A stretch of 64,000 bases of DNA, from NCBI GenBank assembly GCA_045655005.1, contig JAZOOJ010000019.1:5416-69415 (forward strand), in the 5' to 3' direction. Positions 3,038 through 64,000 of this stretch are shown one piece after another. Origin of the DNA: Clostridia bacterium (GTDB lineage: Bacteria; Bacillota; Clostridia; Christensenellales; UBA1242). Under the pieces are notes generated by a model. That model did not search any database, was not told the DNA's origin, and saw only the letters and a list, made by a program, of their open reading frames with translations. Position numbers and translations under genes: made by a program. Each line of letters starts with the position of its first letter. Within the stretch, counting starts at the first letter, position 1.

Positions 3038-3040
3038 AAA

Positions 3041-3072
3041 AATGAGTCTTGTTTTTACAAGGCTCATTTTTG
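3041..3072. terminator. Bidirectional rho-independent terminator between recO (+) and the BRO-N gene (-)
   Basis: Hairpin aatgagtcttg / caaggctcatt with one G-U pair, flanked by an A-run on one side and a T-run on the other. Confidence 0.7.
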
Positions 3073-3106
3073 ATTTAAGTTGTATATTTTTTATGCTTAG
3101 CTTTAG

Positions 3107-11203: not shown

Positions 11204-12529
11204 ATGGAAGAAAAGGTTTTAAAGTGTATTTTAGATAATAATTTGATTAAAAATGGCGATAGGGTTGGTGTTGGACTTTCTGGCGGAGGCGACTCTATGG
11301 CGTTGATGTCGTGTTTAATAAAATTGCAGGCAAAAATTGATTTTCAAATTATTGCAATTCATATAAATCACAATTTGCGTGGAGAAGAAGCTCTAAGAGA
11401 TGTTAACTTTGTTGAGAATTTTTGTAAAAAACATAAAATTAGGTGCCTAGTAAGAAGTGTTGATGTAATTGGTTTTGCAAAAGACAACAAACATACGGTT
11501 GAACAGTCTGCAAGGGAACTCAGGTATAATGAGTTTGGGGATATAGTAGAAAGCGAAGGTTTAGATGTAGTAGCACTTGCTCATCATCAAAACGACCAAG
11601 CAGAAACAGTTTTGATGCATATTGGAAGAGGGTGTGGAGTCAGTGGATTAGTTGGAATGAAGTATAAGTCTGGAAATTTCATTCGTCCAATGCTTGATAT
11701 TTCTAAATCTGAGATAGAAGAATATCTTAAAAACGAAAAAATTGACTTTGTAGAAGACAGTTCAAATGAAAGTGATGATTATAAAAGGAACTATGTCAGA
11801 CATAATTTGCTTAAATCCTTTGAAAATGCCTATTCTGGTGCAGTTTTGAATCTTGTAAAATTATCTAAACTTGCGAGTACAGATGAAGACTTTATTCAGT
11901 CAATTTTGCCTTGCGATTTGATTAAGTCAAGAGAAGATGGTGTAATCCTTTTATCCGAAGTGAAAAATTGTCATCTTGCAATTGTTTCAAGACTAATAAG
12001 AAAATGTTTTATTGAACTAAATGCTATTGTTGATGTTGAGTGTTTTCATATTGAAGCCATTTTAAAGTTGTTTGATACGCAAATTGGCAAAAAACTTGAT
12101 ATGCCAAATGGTGTTGTTGCGGTTAAATGTTATGACGGAGTTTTATTTAAAAAGAAAATATTTGAAAAACAAGCGACATTGTCATTTCAATTAGGCGAAT
12201 TCACATTTTGTGGTCAACAATATAAGGTAAACATTACAAATAAAGCAAGTGATGTAGGAAATAATTGTCTATATTTTGATTTAGATAAAATTCCAAGAGA
12301 TGCTGTATGGAGAAATTATTGCAGTGATGATGTTTTTACAAAGTTTGGTGGCGGAAGTAAAAAGGTAAAAGACTATTTAGTTTCAAAAAAAGTAGACTGT
12401 GAAAGAAGAAAAATATTACCATGTTTGTGCGTGGGGAATAAATGCCTATTAATTGCAGGGGTAGAGATATCTAACGATATTAAAACAAACGAAAATACAA
12501 AAAATATAGGTTTTGTGCAAAAAATCTAA
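11204..12529 (+). CDS. tilS: tRNA(Ile)-lysidine synthetase
   Basis: 441 aa with the PP-loop motif GLSGGGDSMAL. spoIIE-tilS synteny. Confidence 0.9.
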   Translation: MEEKVLKCILDNNLIKNGDRVGVGLSGGGDSMALMSCLIKLQAKIDFQIIAIHINHNLRGEEALRDVNFVENFCKKHKIRCLVRSVDVIGFAKDNKHTVEQSARELRYNEFGDIVESEGLDVVALAHHQNDQAETVLMHIGRGCGVSGLVGMKYKSGNFIRPMLDISKSEIEEYLKNEKIDFVEDSSNESDDYKRNYVRHNLLKSFENAYSGAVLNLVKLSKLASTDEDFIQSILPCDLIKSREDGVILLSEVKNCHLAIVSRLIRKCFIELNAIVDVECFHIEAILKLFDTQIGKKLDMPNGVVAVKCYDGVLFKKKIFEKQATLSFQLGEFTFCGQQYKVNITNKASDVGNNCLYFDLDKIPRDAVWRNYCSDDVFTKFGGGSKKVKDYLVSKKVDCERRKILPCLCVGNKCLLIAGVEISNDIKTNENTKNIGFVQKI

Positions 12530-12571
12530 TATTTTGACATAAAAATACAATAATTTGACAAAAATATTGGT

Positions 12572-13675
12572 ATGAAAAAGAAAATCATATCAATATTTTT
12601 TGTTTTAATTGCATTTTTTGTCGTAAGTGGTTCAACACTTGTGGTAAACAATAATTTTGCATATTCAAGAAAATATGAGATTGAAACAAAGGGTGTGTCG
12701 GTTGAAAGAGTGTATTTTAAAGTCCGTGACGGAATTACTGAAAGACTTGATAAAATGGCGTTAAAACTGAAAAGTATGGGTTTTAATGATAGTGTAATTA
12801 CAAAGTATCTTTTCACAAACTACGAAGAAGTTATTAAGTCTTTGCAGGCTGAGAATATCGAAGTTGTTAATTCTGAAATTGTATTAGAGGGAAATAGAAT
12901 TTATCCAACGCAAGAATCAAATGGAAAAATTGTGCAAATCGACAAACTTGATAGTTTAATTGTATCAAAAGTGCTTTCAAATGAGCCTTTTTTAGAAGTT
13001 CCTTTTGAAACAATTGAAGCGTCAAGCACATATGCTGAGAATTTGGCGTTTTGTAATCTAAAATCTTATTTTACAACCCCAATAAGGGGCATAAACCAAG
13101 AGGGGAGAATACACAATATTGGAGTTGCATTATCTAAATTTGATGGAATGAGAATTGAACCAAACGAGGTTGTTTCATTTAATAAAGTTATTGGTAATAC
13201 AACGCAAGAGAATGGATATGCACTTGCAAAAGTAATAATTAATGGAAAGTATGAAGATGACTTTGGTGGTGGAGTATGTCAGGCGTCAACAACTCTTTAC
13301 AATGCATTACTTTTGGCCGATGTTGAGGTAATGCAAGCAAATCCGCATAGTTTAAAAGTGGGTTATGTTGAGGGTGCTTTTGATGCTATGGTTTCTTATG
13401 GTATAAGTGACTTGATTTTTAAAAACAATACGGGTGGACCATTGTTTATTACGACATTTTGTAATAGCGACAGTTGTGGGGCAACTATCTTTGGCTCGGA
13501 AAATGAATTTGATATTGTAAGACGCTCGGAAATTGTTGACTTTGATAGTGAGAAATTTCCAAAAATAAGTTCAAAATATGAGAGTTTTTTAGATTACTAT
13601 AAAAATGGCGAAAAGAAGTTTGAAAAGAGAATAAGGAAAGACAATTATTATAAATTAAATGTAGAAAGTGTTTAA
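12572..13675 (+). CDS. VanW family protein (signal-anchored)
   Basis: 367 aa with an N-terminal TM segment and the VanW core GGGVCQASTTLYNALLLA. Confidence 0.8.
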   Translation: MKKKIISIFFVLIAFFVVSGSTLVVNNNFAYSRKYEIETKGVSVERVYFKVRDGITERLDKMALKLKSMGFNDSVITKYLFTNYEEVIKSLQAENIEVVNSEIVLEGNRIYPTQESNGKIVQIDKLDSLIVSKVLSNEPFLEVPFETIEASSTYAENLAFCNLKSYFTTPIRGINQEGRIHNIGVALSKFDGMRIEPNEVVSFNKVIGNTTQENGYALAKVIINGKYEDDFGGGVCQASTTLYNALLLADVEVMQANPHSLKVGYVEGAFDAMVSYGISDLIFKNNTGGPLFITTFCNSDSCGATIFGSENEFDIVRRSEIVDFDSEKFPKISSKYESFLDYYKNGEKKFEKRIRKDNYYKLNVESV

Positions 13676-13720
13676 AAATTAAGATTTTGGGAAAGATTGC
13701 TTTTGAAGGAGATTGAATTT

Positions 13721-13975
13721 ATGAGAAAAGCAACCCAAACAATAAGCGAAATCATAGACAAAATTAAGTCTATGCAAGGAAAAGATGTTGATATGGAAGT
13801 AAACAGGGGAAGAAAAAGAATTGAAAAATACGTAGCGGTTATAGATAAAATCTATCCAAGCGTTTTTACGGTATCAATCAAAGAACCTGCTGGGAATAAC
13901 AATCAAAGTTATAGTTATTCAGATGTTTTATGTGGTGATGTTAAAATAAAACAAAAACAAATTAAATTAAGTTAG
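13721..13975 (+). CDS. veg: Veg family protein
   Basis: The start is refined to ATG 13721, which has GAAGGAG 8 nt upstream. NRGRKRIEKYVAVIDKIYPSVFTVSI....SYSYSDVL matches Bacillus Veg (GGRRK..E..G.....YPSVF......SYSY.D.L). Confidence 0.85.
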   Translation: MRKATQTISEIIDKIKSMQGKDVDMEVNRGRKRIEKYVAVIDKIYPSVFTVSIKEPAGNNNQSYSYSDVLCGDVKIKQKQIKLS

Positions 13976-14038
13976 TCATAAAAGCCGGTCCTTTATACTA
14001 GAATGTATTATCACAAAATTTAAGGAGGACGACAGAGG

Positions 14039-15538
14039 GTGGCAAGTGTTGCATCGACAAAGAAAGTGGCTAATAAGAGTTTGGTAAAAACTCTTGAATT
14101 GAAGACCAGTTGCAGTTATCAAACAGAAGATGGGAAGTTTATAGATAAAATTTTGGACGGAATTGCAAGTGTTTCTATTGAAACAAGTGAAAAAGTGGGA
14201 GACTTTTTGCAGTTCGCAGGAAAAGTAAATTTAACAAGTGTTTTTGTAGATAGCGAAAAGCAACTTGGTAGCGAAAAAATCGAAAGTAATTTTTCAGAGA
14301 AAGTGCAAATAGGTGATGTTGATGCTACTGCAATTATCCCCAAAATTATTTCGGTTAAACAAAGGCGAGAAACTTCAAATTATGTAGATTGCACAATAAT
14401 TTTAACTATTGAAATTTATGGAGTTTTGCAAGAAACAATTGCGTATGTTGATGCTGGAAATGTAGGATTGGTAGAAAAGACCAAAGTGATTGAGGCTGAA
14501 AGTTTATTGTGCTTCAATAATACTACATTTAATTTAAACGATGAAATTGAAAGCGTTGACCATATTGACAGAGTTATTGCAAACTATACAACCGTTGCTA
14601 TCAACAAGGTGGTTCCAAATGGAAACTATGTAATTGTGGACGGCGAATTGTACAGAGATGTACTTTATGTTTCAGAGGGGATAACAAAAAAATTGCAAAA
14701 GCGTAACGACTTTACGCAAGAAGTTGCTCTGTTAAATTGTAGTGATGACACGATAATATCTTCCAAAATTTACCTTGCAAACGAAAGCCTTTCATTAGAT
14801 TTAAGCGATGATGGCTTAAAATCGGTAATTACTTTTAACACCAACATTTCTGCGTCGGTTTGGGGATTTGAAAAGACCAAGTTTAATTGCTTAGAAGACG
14901 TTTATTCTACCAAAAAAGAACTTGAAATCAAACATTCTTCATACACAAATATTATGCAGTATAATTCAATATTTGCAAGTGAAAATCTTTTATCCAATAT
15001 TGATATGTCTGACAAAAAGAGAATTGATGAGATTGTGTCAATTGGTTCAAGCAGTGTTTCAATTAATAGCATAGTCACTGAAAATTCGGTATGCAAGATA
15101 GGCGGAGTGATTACGCAGAAAATAATTGCCAAAAATTATGATAATGACGATATATTCTCAACCGAAGTAGAAGTACCATATTCTACACAAATTAACTTGA
15201 ATATCGAAGACGATTCCGATTGTTGTTCATATGTTGTTGCGAGATGCGTAAATGCAAAAAACAAGGCTGGAAAAGAATTGAGTTTAACCTATGAAATCAA
15301 TATTATGTCAGACATAGTGCAGAAAAAAATAGAAAGTTATATCTCAGAATGCAATGAGTTGACAGATAAAGTATCGTCAAATCATAGTATTGTAATTTAT
15401 ATGCCTGAAAAAAATGAAAAAATATTTGACATTGCGAAAAAATTAAGCGTAACACCAGAAGTAATGCTTGCCCAAAATCCGGGAATCTCTGACAATGAGC
15501 CTATTTCAAAAATTATCTTATTTAAAAGCGTAAAATAA
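14039..15538 (+). CDS. Large sporulation-associated protein, possibly DUF3794/SPOCS repeats with a C-terminal LysM-like segment
   Basis: 499 aa, GTG start with AGGAGG 10 nt upstream. The C-terminus IVIYMPEKNEKIFDIAKKLSVTPEVMLAQNPGI resembles LysM. The DUF3794 assignment is from memory of similar Clostridial proteins and is weak. Confidence 0.35.
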   Translation: MASVASTKKVANKSLVKTLELKTSCSYQTEDGKFIDKILDGIASVSIETSEKVGDFLQFAGKVNLTSVFVDSEKQLGSEKIESNFSEKVQIGDVDATAIIPKIISVKQRRETSNYVDCTIILTIEIYGVLQETIAYVDAGNVGLVEKTKVIEAESLLCFNNTTFNLNDEIESVDHIDRVIANYTTVAINKVVPNGNYVIVDGELYRDVLYVSEGITKKLQKRNDFTQEVALLNCSDDTIISSKIYLANESLSLDLSDDGLKSVITFNTNISASVWGFEKTKFNCLEDVYSTKKELEIKHSSYTNIMQYNSIFASENLLSNIDMSDKKRIDEIVSIGSSSVSINSIVTENSVCKIGGVITQKIIAKNYDNDDIFSTEVEVPYSTQINLNIEDDSDCCSYVVARCVNAKNKAGKELSLTYEINIMSDIVQKKIESYISECNELTDKVSSNHSIVIYMPEKNEKIFDIAKKLSVTPEVMLAQNPGISDNEPISKIILFKSVK

Positions 15539-51098: not shown

Positions 51099-51174
51099 TG
51101 GCTCCCCCTGTTGGACTCGAACCAACGACCTATCGATTAACAGTCGAGTGCTCTACCGACTGAGCTAAGGAGGA
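51099..51174 (-). tRNA. trnN: tRNA-Asn (anticodon GTT), CCA encoded
   Basis: The reverse complement folds by hand as TCCTCCT-TA-GCTC-AGTCGGTA-GAGC-A-CTCGA-CTGTTAA-TCGAT-AGGTC-GTTGG-TTCGAGT-CCAAC-AGGGGGA-G-CCA. It has a 7-bp acceptor stem (one G-U pair), a TTCGAGT T-loop and anticodon GTT, 76 nt in total. Confidence 0.95.
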
Positions 51175-52068: not shown

Positions 52069-52153
52069 TCATATTATACTATTAAATTTGTTGCGATTTA
52101 GTTTAAAATATTGTACAATAAAATGAGAATAACTATAAAAATTGGAGAATCTT

Positions 52154-54829
52154 ATGGGTTGGCTTACAAATTTAGATAACAAAAGAAGTTTGAAAAAACT
52201 ACAAAAGATAGCCGATGAAATCGATTCATTGGAAGATAAATATTTGAATATGTCAGATGAAGAACTGGCTAATCAAACAAATGTATTAAAAGAAAGATTA
52301 AAGACTGGTGAAACACTTGATGATATTTTGGTTGATGCCTTTGCTGTTGTGCGTGAAGCAAGCACAAGAGTTTTGCATATGCGTCATTTTAATGTGCAAT
52401 TGCTTGGTGGAATTTGCTTGCATCAAGGCAGAATTGCAGAAATGAGAACTGGTGAAGGAAAGACTTTAATATCTACACTTCCTGCCTATTTAAATGCACT
52501 AAGTGGTAAACCTGTTCACATTGTAACAGTTAACGAATATCTTGCAAAAAGAGACGCGGAGTGGATGGGTAAAGTTCATAAATTTCTTGGACTTAGCGTT
52601 GGTTTTGTGTATTCTGCTCAAACACCAGAACAAAAAAGGCAAGCCTATGCTTGTGACATTGTTTATGGAACAAACAGCGAATTTGGTTTTGATTATTTGC
52701 GTGATAATATGGCGATTGACCGAAGGCAAATGCTTGCACGTGGGTATTCCTATGTTATTATCGACGAAATTGATAGTATCTTGATTGATGAAGCAAGAAC
52801 TCCTCTTATTATAAGTGGACCAAGTGGTGAAAGCAGTCAAGAGTATGCTATTGCTGATAAGTTTGCTAAGAATTTAACAGAAGAAGATTATTCAATTGAC
52901 GAAAAGCAAAAGACTATTCACTTGACCGAAAGTGGTGTTGCAAAGGCTGAAAGATTTTATAATATTGCAAATTTAAGTGATGTTGATAATACTGACTTAA
53001 ATCATAATATTAACAATGCAATTCGTGCAAGATTTGTCATGAAGCGAGATAACGATTATATCGTTTCAAACGATGAAGTTTATATCGTTGATGAATTTAC
53101 CGGACGTATTATGGTTGGAAGAAGATTCAGTAATGGTCTTCACCAAGCAATTGAAGCAAAAGAAGGAGTTAAGGTTAAGGCGGAGAATAAAACTCTTGCA
53201 ACAATTACCTTGCAAAATTTCTTTAAACTTTACGAAAAGATGTCTGGTATGACAGGTACAGCACAGACCGAAGAAGGTGAATTTAGGGATATTTACGGGC
53301 TTGATGTTGTTGTAATTCCTACAAACCTTCCAATGATAAGAGTTGATGAAAATGATGAATTCTATTTTTCTCACGAAGCAAAAATTCGTGCAATCATCAA
53401 TGATATCACAAATTGTGTTGAAAGGAAACAACCGGTATTGGTTGGAACAACAACTGTTGAAAGGTCGGAAGAAATCTCAAAAATACTAAGAAGTAAAAAA
53501 ATTGCACACAATGTGTTGAATGCTAAAAATCACTTGCGTGAAGCCGAGATTGTTGCTCAAGCTGGTAAAATTGGTGCTGTAACAATCGCAACAAATATGG
53601 CTGGTCGTGGTACCGATATTTTGCTTGGCGGTAATGCTGAGTTTATGGCAAAAGAAGAGATGAAAAAGGCTGGATATTCTGACGAAATGATTGAAGAAGC
53701 AGTCTCTTATGCTCCAACAGCAGATGAAGAAATAATTAAGGCAAAACTTGAATTTCAAAAGTTCTTAGCAAAGCACAAAGAAGTTGTAAGTGTTGAAAAA
53801 GAAGAAGTTAAGGCTCTTGGTGGGCTTAGAATTATTGGTACAGAACGCCATGAAAGCAGACGTATCGACAATCAGTTAAGAGGTCGTGCAGGTCGTCAAG
53901 GCGACCCAGGCTCGTCTGTGTTCTATATTTCAGCAGATGATGACCTTGCAAGAATTTTCGGAAGTGAAAGATTGAAGAAAATGGCTTCAATGTTCAAACT
54001 TGAAGAAGATGCTTCAATCAAGATGAAATTTTTCTCAAAAAGTGTTGAAACCGCACAAAAGAAGGTTGAGGGCAGAAATTATAGTGTTCGTCGTCAAGTT
54101 GTAGAGTACGATAACGTAATGAACAAGCAACGTGAAGAGGTTTATGTTGAACGTAACAAAATCTTAGACAAAATCAGTATGCACGATAAAATTCTTGATA
54201 TGATTTCAGAGTCTGCAAGTTCAATTGTTAACCAATTTATGGGATTTGAAGAAGTTGAAGATGCTGACATTGATGGATTTAATATGGCTTTGGAACAAAG
54301 AATTATTGAGCCAGGGACTAATTTTATTACACAAGAGATGCTTGAAATAAACTCTGCAAAAGAAGTTGAGGAAGTTGTAATTGAAAAAGCACTCCAAAAG
54401 TACAAAGAAAAGACTGAGGAATTTAAAGAAAAAGGCATAAATATTGAAGATATTGAAAGACTAATTTTACTTAAAGTTTTAGACAAAAAGTGGATTTCAC
54501 ATATCGATGAAATGGACGAACTTCGTCAAGGCATTGGACTTCGTGCGTATGGAAATCAAAACCCAATAAACATTTATCAAAGAGAAGGCTTTGATATGTT
54601 TGAAGAAATGATTGAAAGTATGCGTATTGAAGTTGCTAATATTATGCTTGCTGTTAATGTTGAAGTGGGTCCTCCAAGGCCAAAAATGATGCCAAAGCGT
54701 CCATCTGCGATGGAACATTCGGCAAAAGGAACAGTAACAAACACAAAGTCTGCAACGGGCAGAAATGATGCTTGTCCTTGTGGAAGTGGTAAAAAATACA
54801 AAAACTGTTGCGGAAAAGAATCTGAATAA
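52154..54829 (+). CDS. secA: Preprotein translocase ATPase SecA
   Basis: The start is refined to ATG 52154 (GGAG RBS). Walker A MRTGEGKTL, DEAD-like IIDEIDSILIDEARTPLIISG, and a C-terminal zinc finger CPCGSGKKYKNCCG. Confidence 0.97.
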   Translation: MGWLTNLDNKRSLKKLQKIADEIDSLEDKYLNMSDEELANQTNVLKERLKTGETLDDILVDAFAVVREASTRVLHMRHFNVQLLGGICLHQGRIAEMRTGEGKTLISTLPAYLNALSGKPVHIVTVNEYLAKRDAEWMGKVHKFLGLSVGFVYSAQTPEQKRQAYACDIVYGTNSEFGFDYLRDNMAIDRRQMLARGYSYVIIDEIDSILIDEARTPLIISGPSGESSQEYAIADKFAKNLTEEDYSIDEKQKTIHLTESGVAKAERFYNIANLSDVDNTDLNHNINNAIRARFVMKRDNDYIVSNDEVYIVDEFTGRIMVGRRFSNGLHQAIEAKEGVKVKAENKTLATITLQNFFKLYEKMSGMTGTAQTEEGEFRDIYGLDVVVIPTNLPMIRVDENDEFYFSHEAKIRAIINDITNCVERKQPVLVGTTTVERSEEISKILRSKKIAHNVLNAKNHLREAEIVAQAGKIGAVTIATNMAGRGTDILLGGNAEFMAKEEMKKAGYSDEMIEEAVSYAPTADEEIIKAKLEFQKFLAKHKEVVSVEKEEVKALGGLRIIGTERHESRRIDNQLRGRAGRQGDPGSSVFYISADDDLARIFGSERLKKMASMFKLEEDASIKMKFFSKSVETAQKKVEGRNYSVRRQVVEYDNVMNKQREEVYVERNKILDKISMHDKILDMISESASSIVNQFMGFEEVEDADIDGFNMALEQRIIEPGTNFITQEMLEINSAKEVEEVVIEKALQKYKEKTEEFKEKGINIEDIERLILLKVLDKKWISHIDEMDELRQGIGLRAYGNQNPINIYQREGFDMFEEMIESMRIEVANIMLAVNVEVGPPRPKMMPKRPSAMEHSAKGTVTNTKSATGRNDACPCGSGKKYKNCCGKESE

Positions 54830-54884: not shown

Positions 54885-54914
54885 TTGACACAAAATAATT
54901 TTGTGTGTTATAAT
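54885..54914 (+). promoter_or_regulatory. Extended -10 promoter of the 610-aa repeat protein gene, overlapped by two palindromes
   Basis: TTGACA (54885-54890), 18 nt spacer, TGtTATAAT with the -10 hexamer at 54909-54914. The palindromes are TGTCAAAaTTTGACA (54876-54890) and ACACAAAATaATTTTGTGT (54888-54906). Confidence 0.65.
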
Positions 54915-54940: not shown

Positions 54941-56773
54941 ATGGCGTTGGTATTAAATGAAGAAATGAAAGAGTGGTTAAAACCCAGGATTTCTAAAATT
55001 GCTGGTCAAATAATAACCGAGGTTGATGGTGGAGATATTAACGAAAAGTCATTTTCGCAATATAAATTTCGCTGGACGATGGACAGTTTGAAAAAATCAT
55101 TTTTTAAGCAATTTGGTGAAAGGCTTGAAAGCGAAGAAATTTTTGGGTTGTGCAAAAACTTTGTGTTAGATGAACTTAGAAGCAGGGGATTTGAAGAAGA
55201 TCGTGCACAAAATTTTGCAAGTCGTAATTTTGATATGTCTTTCAGAAGGCAGGTTGACATTGAGTCGTTAACGGTTGAGTTTGCAAGATATTTAAAGAAT
55301 GGCGGAAGTTTGAAGAATGTTTCGGCAAAGGAATTGCCAATGTATGAGCATTCTCGCTCTTTTGTAAGAAAAAGTGACGGGGAAAGTAATGATTTTGCAA
55401 GTACGGTTTTATTGGTAAAAGATTTTTACTTTAAAAATCCACAAATTTTTGAAAGTATGGGGCTTTCTGGATTGAAAGAAGAAGATTTTGTTTTTGTGCC
55501 AAAAGTTGAAAGGGTGGCGGTAAATATTCAAAATTTAACAAGTGAGGTTTGTGACTACATTCGTGCTGGTGGAAAACTTTATGGGGTGACTGCAAAATCC
55601 CTTCCGTTTTTTGAAAGGGCAAGGGGTTATCTTAGATTCCACACAGATGCAGAAGAACTTAATTTAGAACAAGCAATTGATGAGGTTAAAAACTATTATT
55701 TTTCAAACATTGCGCCAAGTGAAAGCGAAGAAGAAAGACTGACAGAGAACGACTTTTTATATATGTCGATGTTTGATTACGAGAAAGCAAAAACAAGGGA
55801 GTCAAGCATTGCAAAGATGTATGAATTGGCACTTTCAAGTGTAGACGAAATGGGTAACGTTGGCAAGGTAAGACATAATCCAGAGTGGAGTGCGTCATTG
55901 TCTGCTTTGGAGTGTGGGCTTACAAGTTTGGAGTTTGTTGCGTTAATGTTTCCGGCAGATAGCGGAATGCATATAAAAAAGGGAAGGGTGCATACTGAAA
56001 AATTCACTTTAATTGGTAAAGACTTAGATGCTTTCGTTCAAAAGTTTGGCGAAAAGAATTTGATTGTGAACATTAAGAAGCACGATACGGTCTTGTATCT
56101 AAGATTATGTAACCTGGCTACGCTTTTCCCAGAGGGGTCAATCAGTCTTGGGGAATTAATGGATTTTTATGGATACAAAGATGAGGCTTGTGATTGGACT
56201 TTTGGAAGTTCAATCGATGAAAGTGATGTTATTGAAGAATTGCGAATTGTCTATGCTGAAGCAGTTCAAAGATATTTGGAAAATGGCGGAAGTCTTGAAC
56301 ATTTTGATATGCGTGTAATAAATAAAATGATGGATTTGCGTGGACAAAAGGTTAATCTTTATCACAATTTATATAAACTTGCACTAAGAAAAGGTCTTGG
56401 GCTAAGTGACTATATCAACGGCAAAGAGATTTCTCTTTATGACGCAATTGAACAAGATAATGGTGAAATTGTTGCAAGGAAAAGACGTGTTAAGGGTGTG
56501 GAAATTCCGCCACTTAGTTACGAGATTGGGTTAGGAGAGAGCAAACACTCAAAAATTGTAACAATAAAAGGTAAAGAGTATACTAACTATTTAAGGCAAA
56601 AGTTGGAAAAATTAATGCAAGAAAGCGAGATAATGAACAACCCAGAGGCTCCAAAGGAAATGAAAATAAATGAAAGGTTCAGGCTCGCTGAAATTGTGAT
56701 TGAACAAGCGGTTGCAGAGTCTGGAAGCGAAGACGCTTTGGCTGGAATTGAGAATCCGAATGCCAGTTGGTAA
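54941..56773 (+). CDS. Hypothetical soluble protein with three copies of a Y(L/I)..GG(S/K)L module
   Basis: 610 aa, AGGAG RBS 7 nt upstream, no TM segment or signal peptide. The internal repeats are listed in the findings. I recognise no family. Confidence 0.75.
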   Translation: MALVLNEEMKEWLKPRISKIAGQIITEVDGGDINEKSFSQYKFRWTMDSLKKSFFKQFGERLESEEIFGLCKNFVLDELRSRGFEEDRAQNFASRNFDMSFRRQVDIESLTVEFARYLKNGGSLKNVSAKELPMYEHSRSFVRKSDGESNDFASTVLLVKDFYFKNPQIFESMGLSGLKEEDFVFVPKVERVAVNIQNLTSEVCDYIRAGGKLYGVTAKSLPFFERARGYLRFHTDAEELNLEQAIDEVKNYYFSNIAPSESEEERLTENDFLYMSMFDYEKAKTRESSIAKMYELALSSVDEMGNVGKVRHNPEWSASLSALECGLTSLEFVALMFPADSGMHIKKGRVHTEKFTLIGKDLDAFVQKFGEKNLIVNIKKHDTVLYLRLCNLATLFPEGSISLGELMDFYGYKDEACDWTFGSSIDESDVIEELRIVYAEAVQRYLENGGSLEHFDMRVINKMMDLRGQKVNLYHNLYKLALRKGLGLSDYINGKEISLYDAIEQDNGEIVARKRRVKGVEIPPLSYEIGLGESKHSKIVTIKGKEYTNYLRQKLEKLMQESEIMNNPEAPKEMKINERFRLAEIVIEQAVAESGSEDALAGIENPNASW

Positions 56774-56787
56774 ACAGCATAAACTAT

Positions 56788-56823
56788 GATAGGTAGAAAC
56801 AATATGTTTCTACCTATTTTTTT
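56788..56823 (+). terminator. rho-independent terminator
   Basis: Hairpin gataggtagaaac / gtttctacctat followed by TTTTTTT. Confidence 0.85.
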
Positions 56824-56912
56824 GATTCCGCAAGGTAAATTAAAAATTTACACAAATATTTTAAATGGGCTATTCAAAGTTGACTTTATTAATAATTAAT
56901 TTTATAATAGTA

Positions 56913-56941
56913 TTGATTTAGTTGACATAGTATGGTATAAT
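56913..56941 (+). promoter_or_regulatory. Extended -10 promoter of the hairpin-protein / giant-protein operon
   Basis: TTGATT (56913-56918), 17 nt spacer, TGgTATAAT with the -10 hexamer at 56936-56941. Confidence 0.6.
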
Positions 56942-56968
56942 ATTGGCAACTAAAAAATTGTGCAGTAA

Positions 56969-58105
56969 ATGAATTTTGATAGGGGGGATTTTATCAAAAT
57001 GACAGAGGCTGAAAAATATGTCAAGGCGATAGAGTTTCAGAGATTATATGTCGCCGTTGATACAGGTTTTGATGCATCAAAGAACGAAGAAGACAAAATT
57101 AAATTGGTTGCGGGAAAACTTGGAATAACCGAAGATGAGGGTAAAAAACTTGCCGATTTTATCAAAGACAAAGCTGGTGGATTAACAAATGAAAATGCAT
57201 TAATTCAAGCACGAGAAGATTATTGGAAAAATCTAAACCAAGAGGAAAGCGATGCTAAAACGCAACTTAAAGACAATATAGACAACCAAGTTGTTGAAAA
57301 AGCCGAACAAGAAGCTTTAAAGGCTGGTAAGGTCGCAAAGGTTGCAAAACGCAAAAGCAGAATTAACATAGTTTTTAAACTTGTATTGCTTGGATTAGTT
57401 ATTGGGGCACTTGCAGGGGGTTCACTTGCAATTATTTCGCCAATAATTAATGCCGTGGCACTTTTGCTTGGTGGACTAAGCGGTGCAACGCTTATGGGAC
57501 TTGGTTGTGGGGTTTGGCTTTACAGCGATAAGATAAAAAAATGGTGGGAAAATAAAGACAAGAAAAGAGGTCAAGGCAAGGACAGATATTTAGGAAATTA
57601 CTTCCAAGAAGAAGATGAAAAAGCTCAAAAAGAATTAAGCAAGAAAATTGCGGAGTGGAACAGTGAGAAGGGTAAAAGAACAGCCCTTCAAACAACATTT
57701 AATGACCGCCAGCAAAAAAGGCAAGACGCAGATAATGAGTTTAACAATCATCCGGCAAATAAAAATGCTAAGAATGCGGTGGATAATTTAATTCAAAGAA
57801 TGACAGCCGAGTGGCAGAATGTTCAAACGGCGGATCCAGGGTGGGCAAATTCATATGGCAAGGACTGGCTGAAATATGGAATTGCAAGACTTAAAAAGCA
57901 ACTTGCGATGGGAAATATCACAGACAGCAATTATGTGACGGATCTTCAACCATATGAAGACTTTTTTATCGGCTCGGGTGGGATTTTTGACCCAGCAAGT
58001 GCGATTCGTGCAGACTTTGATGCGGCAAACAGAGTATTGTCACCTGGAACAGACCACGGTAAGGACAAAGCGCCGAATGACCCAGATTTCTACGAGTTAA
58101 CTTAA
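56969..58105 (+). CDS. Hypothetical Gly/Ala-zipper membrane-hairpin protein, short paralogue of the giant protein's N-terminal region
   Basis: 378 aa from ATG 56969. A more likely start is ATG 56999, which has GGGGGGA 10 nt upstream. The layout is a soluble N-terminal region, a hydrophobic block LVLLGLVIGALAGGSLAIISPIINAVALLLGGLSGATLMGLGCGVWL (about 57362-57523), and then a helical charged region. Confidence 0.75.
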   Translation: MNFDRGDFIKMTEAEKYVKAIEFQRLYVAVDTGFDASKNEEDKIKLVAGKLGITEDEGKKLADFIKDKAGGLTNENALIQAREDYWKNLNQEESDAKTQLKDNIDNQVVEKAEQEALKAGKVAKVAKRKSRINIVFKLVLLGLVIGALAGGSLAIISPIINAVALLLGGLSGATLMGLGCGVWLYSDKIKKWWENKDKKRGQGKDRYLGNYFQEEDEKAQKELSKKIAEWNSEKGKRTALQTTFNDRQQKRQDADNEFNNHPANKNAKNAVDNLIQRMTAEWQNVQTADPGWANSYGKDWLKYGIARLKKQLAMGNITDSNYVTDLQPYEDFFIGSGGIFDPASAIRADFDAANRVLSPGTDHGKDKAPNDPDFYELT

Positions 58106-58146
58106 ACAAAACTTTGGTAAAAATATAAATTAAAGGAGATTTAATT

Positions 58147-61100
58147 ATGGCAACATATTATTTCGATGGAAATGTTGGTAGCTTAACTGAATTTAAAAGG
58201 CTTTATGACTTTTTACATCAATATAACCTGTATATGAAAGAACATCCAACAGCAACAATTAATGATGTTCGAAACAACCTTAGATATCCAGGACTTGGCA
58301 GTGCGTTGTACGGAGCAACAAAGGTTAATGATGAAATTGCAAACATCAAAAGATTGACTGGTGGGGTTATGCCAACTCTGGCTGACGAACAAGATTTTCT
58401 TGACCAATTTAAGACTTTTGCAGAAAACAAGAAAAATGCTGTTGAAACAGAGAGAACCGATGCAAATGAAGCATTTACAGACCCTTCGCGTGGCATTGGC
58501 GGGAAGTCGCTTGAAGATATTGAATTAGATGCGGAAGACGCTAAGACCGAACTTAGAGATTGCAGATGGGGAAGATCTGGCATTTGGGCTGGCATATTAA
58601 CTGCTGCCGTTCTTGTTGCAGGTGCTGTTTTACTTCCGGGTGCAGCGTTCCTTGCTGGTGGTGCTTTGGCTGTTCCAGCATTCGCAGGTAATGCAGTTGC
58701 ACTTGGTGCACTTGGTGGTGGTGGCTTTTTAGCACATAGAGCCAGCAAGAAACTTAATAAAAGAATTGAAGACGCAAAGAAAGCACGAAAACTTTATCGA
58801 AGACATGAAAAAAGAATCGATAATGCAAAAACAAGGCAAACGGACGCAGAAAACGATTTTAACAATTTTAATAGACACTTCCGTGGTTTTGAAACAGTTG
58901 ATTCGTTATACAATACAAAAGTAAATCAAGATATCGCTGATATTGGTGCAAGACTTCACGCGATAGAATCTACATTACAAACCGAACTAAACGGATGTGT
59001 CCCAGACAATTCAAGAATGGGTTATGCTGAGGCTGTAAGAGTGAGAGCACAAGCGCAGGCAGAATTGAGAAATGTACAAACCGCAATAACTAACTACAAT
59101 AATCTAAGAAGTTCATCAAGCCTTGATTTAACACTATATATGACTGAAATGACAAACGCAATAACTGCAGAAACAGCATTTAATGGTCATAACCTTACAC
59201 CAGCAGTATCTTTTTTAGATAGAGCAGAAGCACAGCAACGAGCGGTAATTACGGCAACTAATGCAGTTGAAGCAAAATTCAATGCAGAAAAGCCTGTGTT
59301 AAGTGGATTGACATTGGGTGGAATAGAAAGAAGTGAAGCAAGAGATGCTTTTAATGATTTAAAGGATGCTGTTGATTTCGTAGAAGGCGTTTTCGCCGGA
59401 TTTACAACAACTATGTCCAATGATGCAATTTTCAGAGATAATGCAACATTTAAAAGAGACTATGAGGACGAGGCAAAAGAAACTTACTTCCAATACAGAG
59501 TTACTTATTCACAAGCTTGGCAAAAATTTACTGAATCGGTTGCGGTTGCTGCAAGGATAAATAGTAATGTGGGATCGGCTAACGGGTTAACTACAGCCGA
59601 GAAGAATGATTATGACAGAGTTGCGAGGGACTTGGCTGGTTACAACACTCAAATTGCAACAATGAATACAGATGCAACCCGAAGAGACGAGTGCGAAAGG
59701 TATGTTGTTGGTGCAGAGATAAAAGCAGGATTGATTCGTGCCTATTCTGAATTACAGAAGGCAAGAGCTGCAGGTGATGTTACAAAAATTACAGATATTG
59801 AAGCAGAAATCGTTCATATTAAGGCATTAGAGACAGCATATGCAAATCCTGGTGCTGACATTGTAGCAATAAGAAACACTCTTGTAACATATATGGCAAC
59901 TATTGAAACATTACTCGCTGGTAGATTTGTTGTTTTGCCATCGGGCGAAAGAGTTCTTGAATCAAACTACGATAGCAGAATTGGTGAATTAGTTCGTGAC
60001 CTTGATCCGCTTGTTGAAAGATCAAAACAGCTAGGTGATGACATGGAGAATCGCAGAGGTGTTTATAGTGATAAAGTTCGTGAAAGAAGTATTGCGAAAA
60101 CCGATATAAGAAATACACTTGCGGATATCCAAGCATTAATAAATGCAAAACGTAGCATAGTCTCTTCGTATGATGAGTACAGAACCGAACGTGATGCTGC
60201 AAACATAGAATTAGCGACAGTCGATCCAGCAGAAAAAAAATATACAATAGACAGTGTGAATTATTACACCGAAATGGACTTTATTGCGTTAAGGTCAAGT
60301 AAAAGCACTGAACTGCTAAATAAAGCACGCGAAGAAGCTGCATCTTTTAATTCAATCCAAACAGAGTTCCCAAATGGTGCTCCTGACACGACTGATCCAG
60401 ATTATACAACCAAAATTTCAAGATACAATCAATTGGTGAATGAGAGAAACACAAAAGCTTCTGAACTTGCTACTCTAGCCACAGAATTGGAGACAATCAA
60501 TAATGCTTTTGGTTCAGCAAAAGACCCTGGGATTGATACTAGGGTGAGTGCTGCAAAAGCAAGAGCAACTAATCTTGTTCAAATACCTGGTGTTAAAGTA
60601 TTTAGAGAATCCGATATTAATGCTGAAATGCAAACAATAAGAGAGGCGTTGGTTGGACCACCTGGCAGTGTTGACGGAGTTTTAAAGCAAGCACAAGATT
60701 TGTATACTGATATGCAGACTGCAACTGGCACAGAATATACTGATAAATTGGCTGAAAGAAGAGATAAATTTATTGAAATGGGCAGGGGTATTAATATTCT
60801 TAATGCATTAGTTGCTGAGAAACAACGCATTGATTCGTCATACTCATACAGCGGAAGCGAAGAAGAAAAAGCAATTCAAGCTATGCAAGCCGAATATGCA
60901 AAAGGAATGCCAGCTGAAAAAACATCAGAACCAACGGTTAAAGTTGGCTCGGTTGAATATACACAAACACAACTTGAAGCAGAGATTCAAAAACAACTTG
61001 GTGAATTAGACGGAATAGTTGCTGATGCAAAAACATCAAGAACGGCTACATTGCCTACAAAAACCGACCCAGCAGAATACACTACTGAGTACAACAGACG

Positions 61101-64000
61101 TCAGAAATTGATTACTGAAGATGGAATCACGGAAAGGCTTACAGTCATTCAAGGTTTAATTAAAGGGTGGACAGATGCAACCCCAGCTGGTTTTGGTCGA
61201 ACAGCAAAATCAGAATGGACAACAAAAATTACTGAGGCAGAAACTGAAAGAGATGCCACAGTATCACCAACACCAACCAAAACTTATACAGATGCAGATG
61301 TTCAAAATAAATTGCAAGAGCTTGAAAATGCTTGTAAAGAAGAACATAATGCAATGCAGAAAGTACAAAACAAGTCATCAGACAGGACTTCAACCGATTA
61401 TTCTGACGCAAAAACAGAAAGAGATGCGGCTGTTCAAAAGATTAACACTATCATTAGCGAACTTAGAACGATGAATGCCACATTTAGTCCTGAAAGAGAT
61501 GATATTAAAAATGCTATTGCGGAAGCAGAGAAGAAAGCTTCAAACTTGGTTGAAATTGAAAATGTGGCTCCGTTCAGAGAGTCTGAGTTTAAGCAAGCAG
61601 TTGTGGACAGAACTACTACACTTCAAGACAAAATGAGGGATCTTGAAAATGGTAAAGATCCAGGCTCGGGATTGCCAATAAAAAGATCTCATGAAAGTTA
61701 TACTGCTGATGAAATTAAAGCACTAACGGGAATAAAAGTAAGATTAGAGGCTGTGAAGTCTGAATATGAAAAACGTGCCGACAAAGAACAAAAGGTTGTT
61801 GATACTGCGCAACAAACCATTGAAAAAGCACAGCAAGTAATTGACCAATACAACGCTTCACATACAACAACTTATGAGTATGCCGGCAAGACTTATACAG
61901 AAGGTGAGATTAAACAATTAATTGCTGAGAAAAAACAAGAACTTGACAGGCAGTTGATTGTTGAGGAAGGTGCGTTTTATATACTTAGCACACAAAAAGA
62001 AATAGGCATTACTAATCCTGAATACATTAACAATGCGATAACGGCCAGAAAAAATGCATGTACAAAGATAGAACGACTTGCTGATGAATTGGAAAAAATT
62101 AATTCTGTGTATCCTGACAGCGAAATACCAGACAAGGTTGCAAAGGCAAGAGCACAAGCATCACCACATGTTGAAATTGAAAATGTACCGCTATTCAGAG
62201 AGGCTGAACTTGAAAGGGTTATACAAGATAATAAAAGGGCATTACTTGGTGCTCTGCAAGAAGAAGAAGCTTGTTTAGTAGAATTAACTGGACTTATAAA
62301 CAAAGGTGGTAAGAAGGCTGAGGGAAGCCAAGAATATATAGATGCAAAGAATAACAGACAACAATGTTGCGATGAAATAAAGAAGTTGGCTGATGCATTG
62401 GATGCACTGGATGCAAAACGCAAAACACCAGAAGTTGATTTGAAAAAAGATATTACCGATCCTGCAAGGGCAAGAGCAAGCGCACTTATTGAATGGGATG
62501 TTGTAAGAGTTGCAAATGCAGATGGTAAAAAGACCGCCAGGTTGATGTATCCGTGTAGAGAAAGTGAACTATCTGAGAACTTGAACCTTTACAAAAATAG
62601 CGTAACAAACGAAATTAAAAATGTAAAAACAGCAAATGAAGACGAAAAAAGTGATAAACTTCTTGTATTAAAGTATAAAAGTGCAATGCTTGAACAACTT
62701 TACAATGAAAAAATTAATAGAGCAACTGATAAAGATTCTGAGAGAGAAAGTCTTAAAGAATATTTGGAAGTAATTGAAAAGGCAAAGCAATTCATTAAAG
62801 ACAATGAAATAGTAGTTGTCAGCGAAAGTGCAAATCCAGAGCCTCCGGTTGAACAAGAACAAGAAGATCATGCTGGGGACGATGAAGATGAGGAATCTGA
62901 TGAAAGAAGAGTTGCCGAAGAAGAAGCAATGTGGGAAGCACATGGTTCAAATATTGTGCCACAACCAACTGAAGAGGAAATTGCTGCAAATTTAGAGGAA
63001 GGATTTAACCTTATTGAGGAAGAACGTCAAAGGGCGGAAGATGAAGAAGAAAGGCTTGATGATGAATATTATTCAGCACTTGAAGCGGAATTGAATGAAG
63101 AGACTGATGATGCTGAGCATGACGATGATTATTATGGCGAAGACGATAATGAAGCGTTAGATGCTCACGAAGGCGAGAAGGATAGACATAGCAAAAGAAG
63201 AAAAGACACAATATACGCAGGACAAAGAGACGCAAAAAATGCTCCATTCGTTGAAGCAAAGAGAAAAGCTAAGAAATTAGAAGCCGAACGTAGATATGAG
63301 GATATACTTGCAAGACAACAGGCCGAAGCGGAACAAAGAGAAATCGCTAACGCAGAAAGGGCTAATGCACAAGCCGAGGCACTTGCTGAAAGTGAAAGAC
63401 AAAAAGCCGAGGCTGAAAGAATTGCTGAGCAACAAAGACAAGAAGCAGAAGCAAAAGCTTTGGCTGATAAACAACAACAAGCAGACGCAAAACTTGAAGC
63501 GGAAATTATGGCGAAAGATAGGCTTCGTGAAATTGAAGATAGGGCTAAAACTTTGGCTGAATATGTCGATGAGGCAAGAAGTGTTTATACCGTTGAAAAT
63601 GCGACAGATTATTTAACAATACAAGCAGAAATTGAAGACTTAAAAGCTATGCATGGAATTGCTTATGATAAAGAGACTGGAAGACTTGTTTCAAACGGTG
63701 GAAGAGATTATGAAGACCGTGAAGAAGCACAAGAGAAAATCCGAAGAAAAACTCAAATTTTAAGGGATAGGGCGTTTGAAAAACAGAAAGAAAACAGAAG
63801 TGAGATTCTTGCACTTATTAATGAAGAAGCACAAAGACTACTTGTTCTTCTAAAAGAACAACAAGCATACGCAAAGGAAAATGGTGATGAAGATTTCTCT
63901 TGGACAGAGTATCCGCTTGATGTGTTAAAAGACGTTCAAGAAGAGTTAAAGAGAGATGTTGAAGCAGAAGCAAGAGCTGGTGTTGAACAAGAGAGAAAAG
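58147..64000 (+). CDS. Giant membrane-anchored, predominantly helical repeat protein (more than 1,950 aa, 3' end outside the window)
   Basis: ATG 58147 has AGGAG at 58134-58138. My hand translation of + frame 1 is uninterrupted to nt 63999. This ORF is absent from the ORF track because it has no stop in the window. Every listed + ORF in this span is in frame 2, and the minus-strand ORFs are low-complexity shadows. Confidence 0.85.
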   Translation, partial: MATYYFDGNVGSLTEFKRLYDFLHQYNLYMKEHPTATINDVRNNLRYPGLGSALYGATKVNDEIANIKRLTGGVMPTLADEQDFLDQFKTFAENKKNAVETERTDANEAFTDPSRGIGGKSLEDIELDAEDAKTELRDCRWGRSGIWAGILTAAVLVAGAVLLPGAAFLAGGALAVPAFAGNAVALGALGGGGFLAHRASKKLNKRIEDAKKARKLYRRHEKRIDNAKTRQTDAENDFNNFNRHFRGFETVDSLYNTKVNQDIADIGARLHAIESTLQTELNGCVPDNSRMGYAEAVRVRAQAQAELRNVQTAITNYNNLRSSSSLDLTLYMTEMTNAITAETAFNGHNLTPAVSFLDRAEAQQRAVITATNAVEAKFNAEKPVLSGLTLGGIERSEARDAFNDLKDAVDFVEGVFAGFTTTMSNDAIFRDNATFKRDYEDEAKETYFQYRVTYSQAWQKFTESVAVAARINSNVGSANGLTTAEKNDYDRVARDLAGYNTQIATMNTDATRRDECERYVVGAEIKAGLIRAYSELQKARAAGDVTKITDIEAEIVHIKALETAYANPGADIVAIRNTLVTYMATIETLLAGRFVVLPSGERVLESNYDSRIGELVRDLDPLVERSKQLGDDMENRRGVYSDKVRERSIAKTDIRNTLADIQALINAKRSIVSSYDEYRTERDAANIELATVDPAEKKYTIDSVNYYTEMDFIALRSSKSTELLNKAREEAASFNSIQTEFPNGAPDTTDPDYTTKISRYNQLVNERNTKASELATLATELETINNAFGSAKDPGIDTRVSAAKARATNLVQIPGVKVFRESDINAEMQTIREALVGPPGSVDGVLKQAQDLYTDMQTATGTEYTDKLAERRDKFIEMGRGINILNALVAEKQRIDSSYSYSGSEEEKAIQAMQAEYAKGMPAEKTSEPTVKVGSVEYTQTQLEAEIQKQLGELDGIVADAKTSRTATLPTKTDPAEYTTEYNRRQKLITEDGITERLTVIQGLIKGWTDATPAGFGRTAKSEWTTKITEAETERDATVSPTPTKTYTDADVQNKLQELENACKEEHNAMQKVQNKSSDRTSTDYSDAKTERDAAVQKINTIISELRTMNATFSPERDDIKNAIAEAEKKASNLVEIENVAPFRESEFKQAVVDRTTTLQDKMRDLENGKDPGSGLPIKRSHESYTADEIKALTGIKVRLEAVKSEYEKRADKEQKVVDTAQQTIEKAQQVIDQYNASHTTTYEYAGKTYTEGEIKQLIAEKKQELDRQLIVEEGAFYILSTQKEIGITNPEYINNAITARKNACTKIERLADELEKINSVYPDSEIPDKVAKARAQASPHVEIENVPLFREAELERVIQDNKRALLGALQEEEACLVELTGLINKGGKKAEGSQEYIDAKNNRQQCCDEIKKLADALDALDAKRKTPEVDLKKDITDPARARASALIEWDVVRVANADGKKTARLMYPCRESELSENLNLYKNSVTNEIKNVKTANEDEKSDKLLVLKYKSAMLEQLYNEKINRATDKDSERESLKEYLEVIEKAKQFIKDNEIVVVSESANPEPPVEQEQEDHAGDDEDEESDERRVAEEEAMWEAHGSNIVPQPTEEEIAANLEEGFNLIEEERQRAEDEEERLDDEYYSALEAELNEETDDAEHDDDYYGEDDNEALDAHEGEKDRHSKRRKDTIYAGQRDAKNAPFVEAKRKAKKLEAERRYEDILARQQAEAEQREIANAERANAQAEALAESERQKAEAERIAEQQRQEAEAKALADKQQQADAKLEAEIMAKDRLREIEDRAKTLAEYVDEARSVYTVENATDYLTIQAEIEDLKAMHGIAYDKETGRLVSNGGRDYEDREEAQEKIRRKTQILRDRAFEKQKENRSEILALINEEAQRLLVLLKEQQAYAKENGDEDFSWTEYPLDVLKDVQEELKRDVEAEARAGVEQERK
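61549..61587 (+). repeat. Intragenic repeat copy A (encodes VEIENVAPFRESE)
   Basis: gttgaaattgaaaatgtggctccgttcagagagtctgag matches copy B at 32 of 39 positions by hand alignment. Confidence 0.8.
62170..62208 (+). repeat. Intragenic repeat copy B (encodes VEIENVPLFREAE)
   Basis: gttgaaattgaaaatgtaccgctattcagagaggctgaa is in the same frame as copy A, 621 nt downstream. Confidence 0.8.

Follow-up and report, generated by a model that had tools for sequence, protein, structure and literature searches.

A short protein and its giant neighbour in a Clostridia bacterium very likely share a membrane-proximal module

We analysed a 64,000-nucleotide (nt) stretch of the genome of a Clostridia bacterium (assembly GCA_045655005.1, contig JAZOOJ010000019.1, positions 5,416 to 69,415 of the forward strand), referred to below as the window. 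In it, gene B (56999..58105, + strand), which encodes a short protein, probably of 368 amino acids (aa), is followed directly by the giant gene C (58147..64000, + strand), which has at least 1951 codons and a frame that is still open at the end of the window. The 3' end of C and the genes further downstream lie beyond the window, making this length a lower bound. The principal finding is that B and C are very likely old paralogues that share a membrane-proximal module of about 200-240 residues, as judged from profile-profile comparison (hhalign), shuffle controls, HMMER searches and cross-genome BLASTP. The best overall explanation, to which we assign a probability of about 0.5, is a paralogous hairpin-anchored pair in which a short partner accompanies an all-helical giant scaffold that faces the cytoplasm. 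An earlier note on this DNA had described B as a short paralogue of the N-terminus of the giant and had placed the two genes in one operon.

The membrane-proximal module of B and C

Relatives of the two genes were recovered from other contigs (designated here by L numbers), which added five B genes and six C genes or fragments to those of the window, and the family profiles were built from six B and seven C orthologues (effective number of sequences, Neff, about 2.4). The probability that hhalign assigned to the match between them climbed with profile depth, from 72.6% with three sequences per family to 94.9% (expectation value, E, 4.5e-8; 190 columns) with six and seven sequences. Against a 600-aa C profile it was 94.6% (E 6.9e-8), with B residues 45-285 aligned on C residues 78-296. 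The region of B homologous to C (57131..57853, + strand) comprises a pre-membrane helix, a hydrophobic hairpin and post-membrane helices; its counterpart in C, delimited by hhalign and HMMER, occupies 58378..59034 (+ strand). The boundaries are collinear and the hairpins are similarly placed, at aa 121-175 in B and aa 143-196 in C.

When profile columns were shuffled region by region, with composition and hairpin position kept, the whole alignment scored z 7.5, the N side z 4.4, the C side z 5.45 and the hairpin alone z 1.1. With the hairpin deleted, z was still 5.2 over 146 collinear columns, so that the family alignment remains significant without the hydrophobic block; the outcome that the earlier note had named as refuting, a non-significant alignment after masking, was not obtained. 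In a control that rotated the flanks and left the hairpin intact, the real score of 63.6 compared with a mean of 42.5 and a maximum of 59.6 (z 2.9), and none of 40 rotations reached it. A HMMER profile made from C sequences only retrieved the B proteins of L004 (E 6.9e-7) and of the window (E 0.0024) and matched nothing besides these among 324 open reading frames (ORFs) of the window and L004; the other membrane proteins of the window were unmatched. BLASTP between B of the window and C of L003 gave E 0.003 over 139 aa.

The limits of the module differ from those first proposed. The earlier note had the architecture shared over the first ~260 residues of the giant: the module is indeed shared, but the extreme N-termini are not part of it and its end runs on to about nt 59034. 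Comparison of profiles of B1-63 and C1-79 gave only z 0.77, and the best local match did not pair EFQRLY (57032-57049) with EFKRLY (58189-58206), the two motifs that had been put forward as an N-terminal identity. The segment that carries them has a BLASTP E of 1.5, and a match of five in six residues between the N-domains arises in 8.8% of shuffles; we therefore rejected N-terminal homology through these motifs as a chance-level match. An extension into the C-terminal domain of B was likewise rejected, as the alignment stops at B285/C296 even against the 600-aa C profile, which leaves the last 83 residues of B (aa 286-368) outside the shared module.

A second pair of motifs, RQDADNEFNNH (57719-57751) and RQTDAENDFNNFNRH (58834-58878), fared differently. 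In shuffle tests of the window pair the post-hairpin segments were significant (z 5.1, p about 0.0005-0.001), and the N-domains (z 1.2) and hydrophobic blocks (z 1.3) did not rise above composition. The two motifs are thus locally significant in the window pair but out of register in the family alignment, which shifts them by roughly 35-50 residues and never offered the window-pair register as an alternative. By the family alignment they are not homologous positions, and the residue register after the hairpin is ambiguous. The coordinates of the short motifs, on recheck, were right to within 1 nt.

The Gly/Ala-rich block of about 50 aa and the basic juxtamembrane stretch described earlier were found in both proteins. 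Both families have an uncharged block of 49-54 aa with 33-54% Gly/Ala/Ser, a central Pro and a Kyte-Doolittle maximum of 2.3-2.5, and its length is kept in those orthologues that show a detectable uncharged block. The 20 residues after the block include 7-9 Lys/Arg in both families, and B is strongly basic before the block too. The hydrophobic hairpin of B (57359..57523, + strand; aa 121-175) is uncharged, reaches a Kyte-Doolittle maximum of 2.5 and has an invariant GSLA..P turn, with an invariant WW just after it and 7-9 Lys/Arg in each 20-aa flank. The hairpin of C (58573..58734, + strand; aa 143-196) consists of Gly/Ala/Ser to about 52%, contains Pro164 and Pro177 and is followed by 9 Lys/Arg in the next 20 aa. 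C has no N-terminal signal peptide, and about 143 soluble, acidic residues precede its hydrophobic block. Because of the positive-inside rule, by which basic flanks stay on the cytoplasmic side, each protein probably forms a hairpin with both of its termini in the cytoplasm.

The hairpin-coding part of C is overlapped by an antisense ORF (58218-58748, - strand) that has a counterpart in L002 (3112-3654, - strand). These ORFs encode 176-180 aa rich in Pro, Ala and Ser. We rejected a minus-strand gene at this site as very unlikely: the ORF is a by-product of the GC-rich Gly/Ala codons of the sense strand, as is the one in L002.

Gene order and transcription signals

Adjacency was counted in the contigs that show DNA upstream of C (L001, L002, L003, L004 and L006). 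In 5/5 of these, C is immediately preceded by a B gene in the same orientation, with gaps of 45, 37, 26, 55 and 58 nt, respectively, and each B recovered has C after it. The short and giant genes thus co-occur in these genomes, and the second outcome named as refuting in the earlier note, homologues that are never adjacent, was not found either. The B orthologues (n = 6 in the family) are 362-368 aa long and 31-74% identical, and the C orthologues comprise proteins of 1252, 1653 and 1847 aa plus fragments. Identity to the window copies of B and C falls in step across the loci (74/81, 50/54, 35/42, 31/37 and 34/35%, respectively).

B and C of the window are separated by 41 nt (58106-58146), and a terminator scan found no terminator-like site within this gap, in agreement with the initial description. 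The Shine-Dalgarno sequence of C, AAAGGAGA (58132..58139, + strand), was read from the sequence and stands 7 nt before the ATG. A weak terminator-like hairpin of 7 bp inside the hairpin-coding part of B (57411-57431) is probably a chance outcome of Gly/Ala codons. Upstream of B, the intrinsic terminator of the preceding gene A (56788..56825, + strand) consists of a 14-bp stem (56788-56818) and a T-run; it folds at -18 kcal/mol (z -4.4), and 0/200 shuffles fold as well, which bears out the strong terminator reported at 56788-56823.

Promoter scanning and conservation delimit a regulatory element of ~80 nt (56880..56958, + strand) with tandem promoters. The single extended -10 promoter of the earlier description is present (P2, 56913-56941, + strand; TTGATT-17-TGgTATAAT), but it is accompanied by a second one (P1, 56880-56908, + strand; TTGACT-17-TATAAT), both being of the sigma-70 type. 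An 11-nt inverted repeat (56917-56927 / 56944-56954) brackets the -10 hexamer of P2 and may be an operator. The element occurs once in the window and stands ahead of B in 4/5 other loci, i.e. wherever DNA upstream of B was assembled (L001, about 1055-1135; L002, about 1800-1878; L004, 6373-6451; L006, about 3020-3100); L004 has the same promoter pair. Over the five loci (window, L001, L002, L004 and L006) the 80 nt are 81-95% identical, although the B and C proteins of those loci are only 31-39% identical. The non-coding DNA flanking the element is 45-71% identical and the B coding DNA of distant pairs 50-53%, whereas the secA DNA, at 83%, about matches the promoter element.

Co-transcription of B and C is likely on these sequence features: the genes are on the same strand, with a short gap, no internal terminator and an upstream promoter, and the arrangement is kept in relatives. 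As an operon of two genes, the unit of the earlier note stands by the same features in so far as it joins B and C; its limit to two genes is not established, because C runs off the window and L004 has two more orphan genes without a terminator. Genes downstream, beyond the window, may belong to the same transcript.

The start of B is more likely the ATG at 56999 than the first ATG of the listed ORF (56969-58105, + strand; 378 aa). This choice rests on the orthologues, which begin with MTEAE/MSQEE/MTQAE at that point (in L003 a few residues earlier), on the 368-aa product of the gene caller and on the AGGGGGG upstream of 56999; no Shine-Dalgarno sequence lies ahead of 56969. The 378-aa product named at first therefore corresponds to an ORF that is present, but the protein itself is more likely 368 aa long.

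The gene order in the window is comFC, secA, A, B, C, with pgk, tpi and dus close by. The secA gene (52142-54829, + strand), after which A, B and C follow, is a canonical one with the SEC-C motif, and secA is in its usual comFC-secA-prfB setting. In L004 the order is comFC, secA, B, C, D (486 aa), E (456 aa), prfB, and in L006 it is secA, B, C; the locus thus lies directly downstream of secA in these two and one gene further on in the window. With pgk, tpi, dus, comFC and secA as neighbours and with no phage or plasmid matches, the locus is chromosomal and not mobile.

Gene A (54941-56773, + strand; 610 aa), the first of three genes after secA, is restricted to the subclade of the window (window, L001 and L002), where it sits between secA and B. 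It has no family match and has a promoter and a terminator of its own, the former (54885-54914) with a perfect consensus TTGACA-18-TATAAT and a TG. By eye, its product contains three similar motifs, Y(L/I)(K/R/E)(N/A)GG(S/K)L.

In L004, no terminator-like site was found between C, D and E. D (11465-12925), an orphan that follows the giant, has a two-span hydrophobic region of its own (aa 144-195); its N-domain resembles that of C (hhalign probability 45%, E 2e-4). D is a possible third representative of the module family. E (12951-14321), another orphan, is extremely acidic and of low complexity, and prfB comes next. The giant gene of L002 has an in-frame TAA (4721-4723) where the window reads GAA, with homology continuing in frame to the end of the contig, and this codon reflects either a nonsense mutation or an error of sequencing. 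The stop at 7282 in L001 may be an artefact because the near-identical P0004, whose contig ends are cut on both sides, reads past that point. At the gathering threshold, Rfam matched only two elements of the window: a tRNA gene (51102-51174, - strand) that lies immediately upstream of the comFC-like gene, and the leader of ribosomal protein L10 (20606-20745, + strand).

The giant protein and the distribution of the family

The shared module of C is followed by the rest of its conserved core (59035..59916, + strand), which is alignable in all orthologues to about aa 590. In a BLASTP map, residues 1-563/588 of C of the window align with the giants of L003 and L004 at 31-35% identity, and beyond them only patches do. 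A variable helical rod (60418..62514, + strand) then holds four copies of a repeat of ~80 aa (aa 758-837, 1082-1159, 1286-1370 and 1395-1456) with the motif ...A.A.AS.LVEIENV.PFRESE.... In jackhmmer searches of the C orthologues the repeat domain had E 1e-16 to 1e-37, with four copies in the window, four in L001 and three in L003. The distal part is very acidic at about aa 1500-1650 and then rich in Glu, Ala and Lys to the end of the window, with a Glu/Ala-rich stretch at about aa 1650-1800. AlphaFold2 modelled aa 1-1200 of C as nearly all helices of 20-50 residues with two tiny beta-hairpins (predicted local distance difference test, pLDDT, 70.8), and B as all-helical, with aa 250-330 predicted best.

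The two most distant complete giants, P0005 (from L003) and P0006 (from L004), share a C-terminal domain of ~330 aa with 41% identity (P0005 aa 1507-1832, at about 5708-6683 of L003; P0006 aa 904-1235, at about 10354-11349 of L004). No counterpart of this domain was found in Pfam or the PDB.

Relatives of the pair are extremely few: when the first 800 residues of C were compared exhaustively by HMMER with 1.84 billion representative proteins, six matches were obtained in all. For A, B, C, their orthologues and D and E of L004, no match above threshold was found in Pfam, NCBIfam, PHROGs or PADLOC. There was a weak Pfam match to Phage_holin_3_6 (E 0.42); PHROGs returned for B just a 27-residue match of unknown function (E 0.0087), and PADLOC-DB 2.0 no component match at E <=0.01 for A, B, C, P0005, P0006, D or E. 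PDB sequences were queried with the profiles of B and C, with the entire giant and with the C-terminal domain of P0005, and no match fell below E 0.05. Foldseek comparison of both AlphaFold2 models with the PDB gave none below E 0.3, the best E being 0.36 and the top targets (Ufd2, talin, SMC, dynein and vinculin) all being non-significant.

Searches of nucleotide collections were equally unproductive. Tblastn found nothing in 50,697 phage records or in plasmids, no match to the C alignment turned up in GTDB genomes, JGI metagenomes or IMG/VR, and scans with the B alignment found the known Clostridia metagenome-assembled genome contig only, with none in metagenomes or viral contigs. A word-indexed homologue search yielded 1-2 relatives per query and none with the alignment of distant giants; hydrophobic or low-complexity words that saturated the candidate list are probably the cause of this poor yield. 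A literature search returned nothing relevant. The B/C family is new in the sense that it has no detectable relative of known function.

Divergence within the locus is uneven. Between the window and L004, identity is 92% for SecA, 59% for ComFC, 34% for B and 32% for the N-terminal 530 residues of C, the rest of which is not alignable between the two. The ratio of non-synonymous to synonymous substitution rates (dN/dS) is 0.02-0.05 for secA, 0.11 for gene A, 0.18-0.21 for B and 0.31-0.50 for C. Values below 1 for B and C (0.18-0.5) indicate that these are real, fast-evolving genes under purifying selection.

Proposed arrangement, alternatives and known systems

In the arrangement that we favour, B and C would be transcribed together from the conserved tandem promoter, and the hairpins of both proteins would insert from the cytoplasmic face of the membrane. 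Each would have the same layout, i.e. a long pre-membrane helix, a hairpin of 49-54 residues, a basic juxtamembrane stretch and then helix for about 100 residues, and the two would associate within the membrane by way of their homologous hairpins and juxtamembrane helices. The rod of helical bundles of C, with its 80-aa repeats and the acidic, Glu/Ala-rich distal part, would constitute a membrane-tethered cytoplasmic scaffold; B, as the short partner or adaptor, would cap or anchor it, and the C-terminal domain of B (aa 286-368) would recruit something else. The pair would have arisen by tandem duplication followed by massive C-terminal growth of the giant. We give even odds to a B-C hetero-oligomer, and a scaffold function of C is a tentative proposal that we hold to be somewhat less likely than not. 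The membrane module of the earlier note, in which a short subunit partners a giant one, is thus upheld as regards paralogy and co-occurrence, its physical partnership being inference only. A bolder version, in which B, C and sometimes D co-assemble into a bacterial membrane skeleton of a new kind, with a rod of >1,900 residues organizing the envelope or division, appears unlikely to us; it would take the set as lineage-restricted, strongly expressed, fast-evolving paralogous hairpin-anchored proteins.

Several observations weigh against the favoured arrangement. The hairpin is read from sequence (49-54 uncharged residues, the central Pro and the Lys/Arg flanks), whereas AlphaFold2 shows no second helix there and gives no confident two-helix hairpin (pLDDT 26-47, with the second half as coil). 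The Foldseek matches to rod proteins all have E above 0.3. As to homology, the profiles are shallow, the B profile in HMMER fails to retrieve C, and the exhaustive C search found no B-like protein at a library-wide E <=0.001. Pairwise BLASTP of B against C(1-400) is weak, with the best E of 0.011 over 58 residues after the hairpin, and the register of the post-membrane helices differs between pairwise and profile alignments.

These last points lend some weight to the view that B and C have no common ancestry and are unrelated hairpin proteins, alike by composition and a few chance identities. The hairpin-hairpin comparisons (z 1.1-1.3) that do not exceed composition, the EFQRLY/EFKRLY match within chance (8.8%), the unstable register, the pairwise E of 0.011 at best and the mere z 2.9 of the strictest control would all be expected of such proteins. 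On the other side, the hhalign probability of about 95% rises with deeper profiles, the hairpin-free alignment retains z 5.2 over its 146 collinear columns, the C profile picks B alone (E 6.9e-7) and leaves the other membrane proteins of the window unmatched, and hairpin position and module boundaries agree. Taken together, these leave unrelatedness a small chance. Common ancestry being preferred, the next alternative concerns function: the pair could be a conflict system, either in anti-phage defence or as a toxin/immunity membrane effector, in which Gly-zipper hairpins form or control a lesion and the giant acts as the sensor. Such a role would fit the divergence, which is very fast relative to the neighbouring genes (B 34% and C 32% against SecA 92% and ComFC 59%), the extreme narrowness of the family (six matches in 1.84 billion proteins) and the glycine-rich hairpins, which recall holins and pore formers (cf. 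the weak Phage_holin_3_6 match, E 0.42), and the Zorya ZorAB complex offers a precedent for a membrane assembly whose long helical tail extends into the cytoplasm (PMC11946911). However, PADLOC and PHROGs gave no match and there is no nuclease, ATPase or other effector domain. The dN/dS values of 0.18-0.5 show no overall diversifying selection, and the conserved consensus tandem promoter of the sigma-70 type suggests strong constitutive expression. The position by secA is fixed (between secA and prfB in L004, with secA directly upstream in L006), which argues for vertical inheritance rather than the patchy distribution of defence islands. We regard a conflict system as improbable.

The proximity of secA would be explained if C were an exported, adhesin-type surface giant, with its hydrophobic block serving as an internal signal-anchor and B as a dedicated export or anchoring factor. 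Like C, such proteins are typically giant, internally repetitive and fast-evolving, and secA immediately precedes the locus in L004 and L006, with one gene in between in the window. However, the giant lacks an N-terminal signal peptide and starts with about 143 acidic residues, and its block fits two spans, not one or three, before the 7-9 Lys/Arg in 20 aa that by the positive-inside rule would place what follows in the cytoplasm. The secA gene is the canonical one with the SEC-C motif in a comFC-secA-prfB setting, rather than an accessory secA2 locus; with its all-helical and highly acidic body, the giant differs from the beta-rich adhesins of Gram-positive bacteria; and the complete orthologues P0005 and P0006 have no sortase or cell-wall-binding Pfam domain. 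Export to the surface is accordingly given little credence, and the paralogous, cytoplasm-facing pair is retained as the preferred reading.

If this reading is right, giant cytoplasmic proteins that are tethered to the membrane, each with a short paralogue as its dedicated partner, form a new family confined to a small group of uncultured Clostridia, and the pair clearly exemplifies a tandem duplication after which one copy grew massively at its C-terminal end. None of the curated libraries searched contains the family. Uncultured Firmicutes have many orphan families, little as yet speaks for new biology, and the practical value is modest: a family defined by six loci, with module boundaries and a conserved promoter plus an operator-like element.

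Among known proteins, phage tape-measure proteins are likewise giant, helical and often provided with Gly-rich hydrophobic segments, but the present locus is in the core chromosome with housekeeping flanks and no phage genes nearby, and membership is not indicated by PHROGs (no match above threshold), by tblastn (no match in phage records) or by viral contigs (none related). Eukaryotic rods that are chains of helical bundles (talin, vinculin, alpha-catenin, spectrin/alpha-actinin and plectin) were the top Foldseek targets of C aa 1-1200; with all E above 0.3, query-normalised template-modelling scores (TM-scores) <=0.1 and about 10% identity, this is generic resemblance and not homology. Three bacterial systems come closer, and EzrA, flotillin and Zorya are all analogies to the pair rather than families to which it belongs. 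Flotillins of the FloA/FloT type are anchored near the N-terminus by a hairpin-type element that leaves both ends in the cytoplasm, and they have a coiled-coil tail rich in Glu and Ala. The giant C has a comparable stretch at about aa 1650-1800, but here a soluble domain of 120-143 aa precedes the anchor, the protein is 4-5 times larger, and no SPFH/Band_7 domain was matched in Pfam or NCBIfam.

ZorA of Zorya is membrane-embedded, with a very long cytoplasmic alpha-helical tail, beside a smaller membrane partner (PMC11946911). It resembles C as a membrane protein with a very long helical extension whose small membrane partner is encoded next to it. Unlike Zorya, however, the present locus has no MotA/ExbB-like transmembrane domain of 3-4 helices, no ZorC- or ZorD-like genes and a fixed chromosomal position, and ZorA and ZorB are not paralogues of each other. 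EzrA, a cell-division scaffold of Firmicutes (PF06160), combines a transmembrane anchor with repeated triple-helical bundles (PMC4243239). The likeness to C lies in the N-terminal membrane anchor, the large cytoplasmic series of consecutive helical-bundle repeats, the scaffold role and the Gram-positive host. EzrA differs in its single transmembrane helix at the extreme N-terminus, its length of about 560 aa and the lack of a paralogous partner gene, whereas the anchor of B and C is, by sequence, an internal hairpin; the EzrA Pfam profile gave no match at E up to 1 in B, C, P0005, P0006 or P0007. Should the proposed arrangement hold, B and C would add to the few known membrane-anchored helical scaffolds of bacteria, of which EzrA is the main example.

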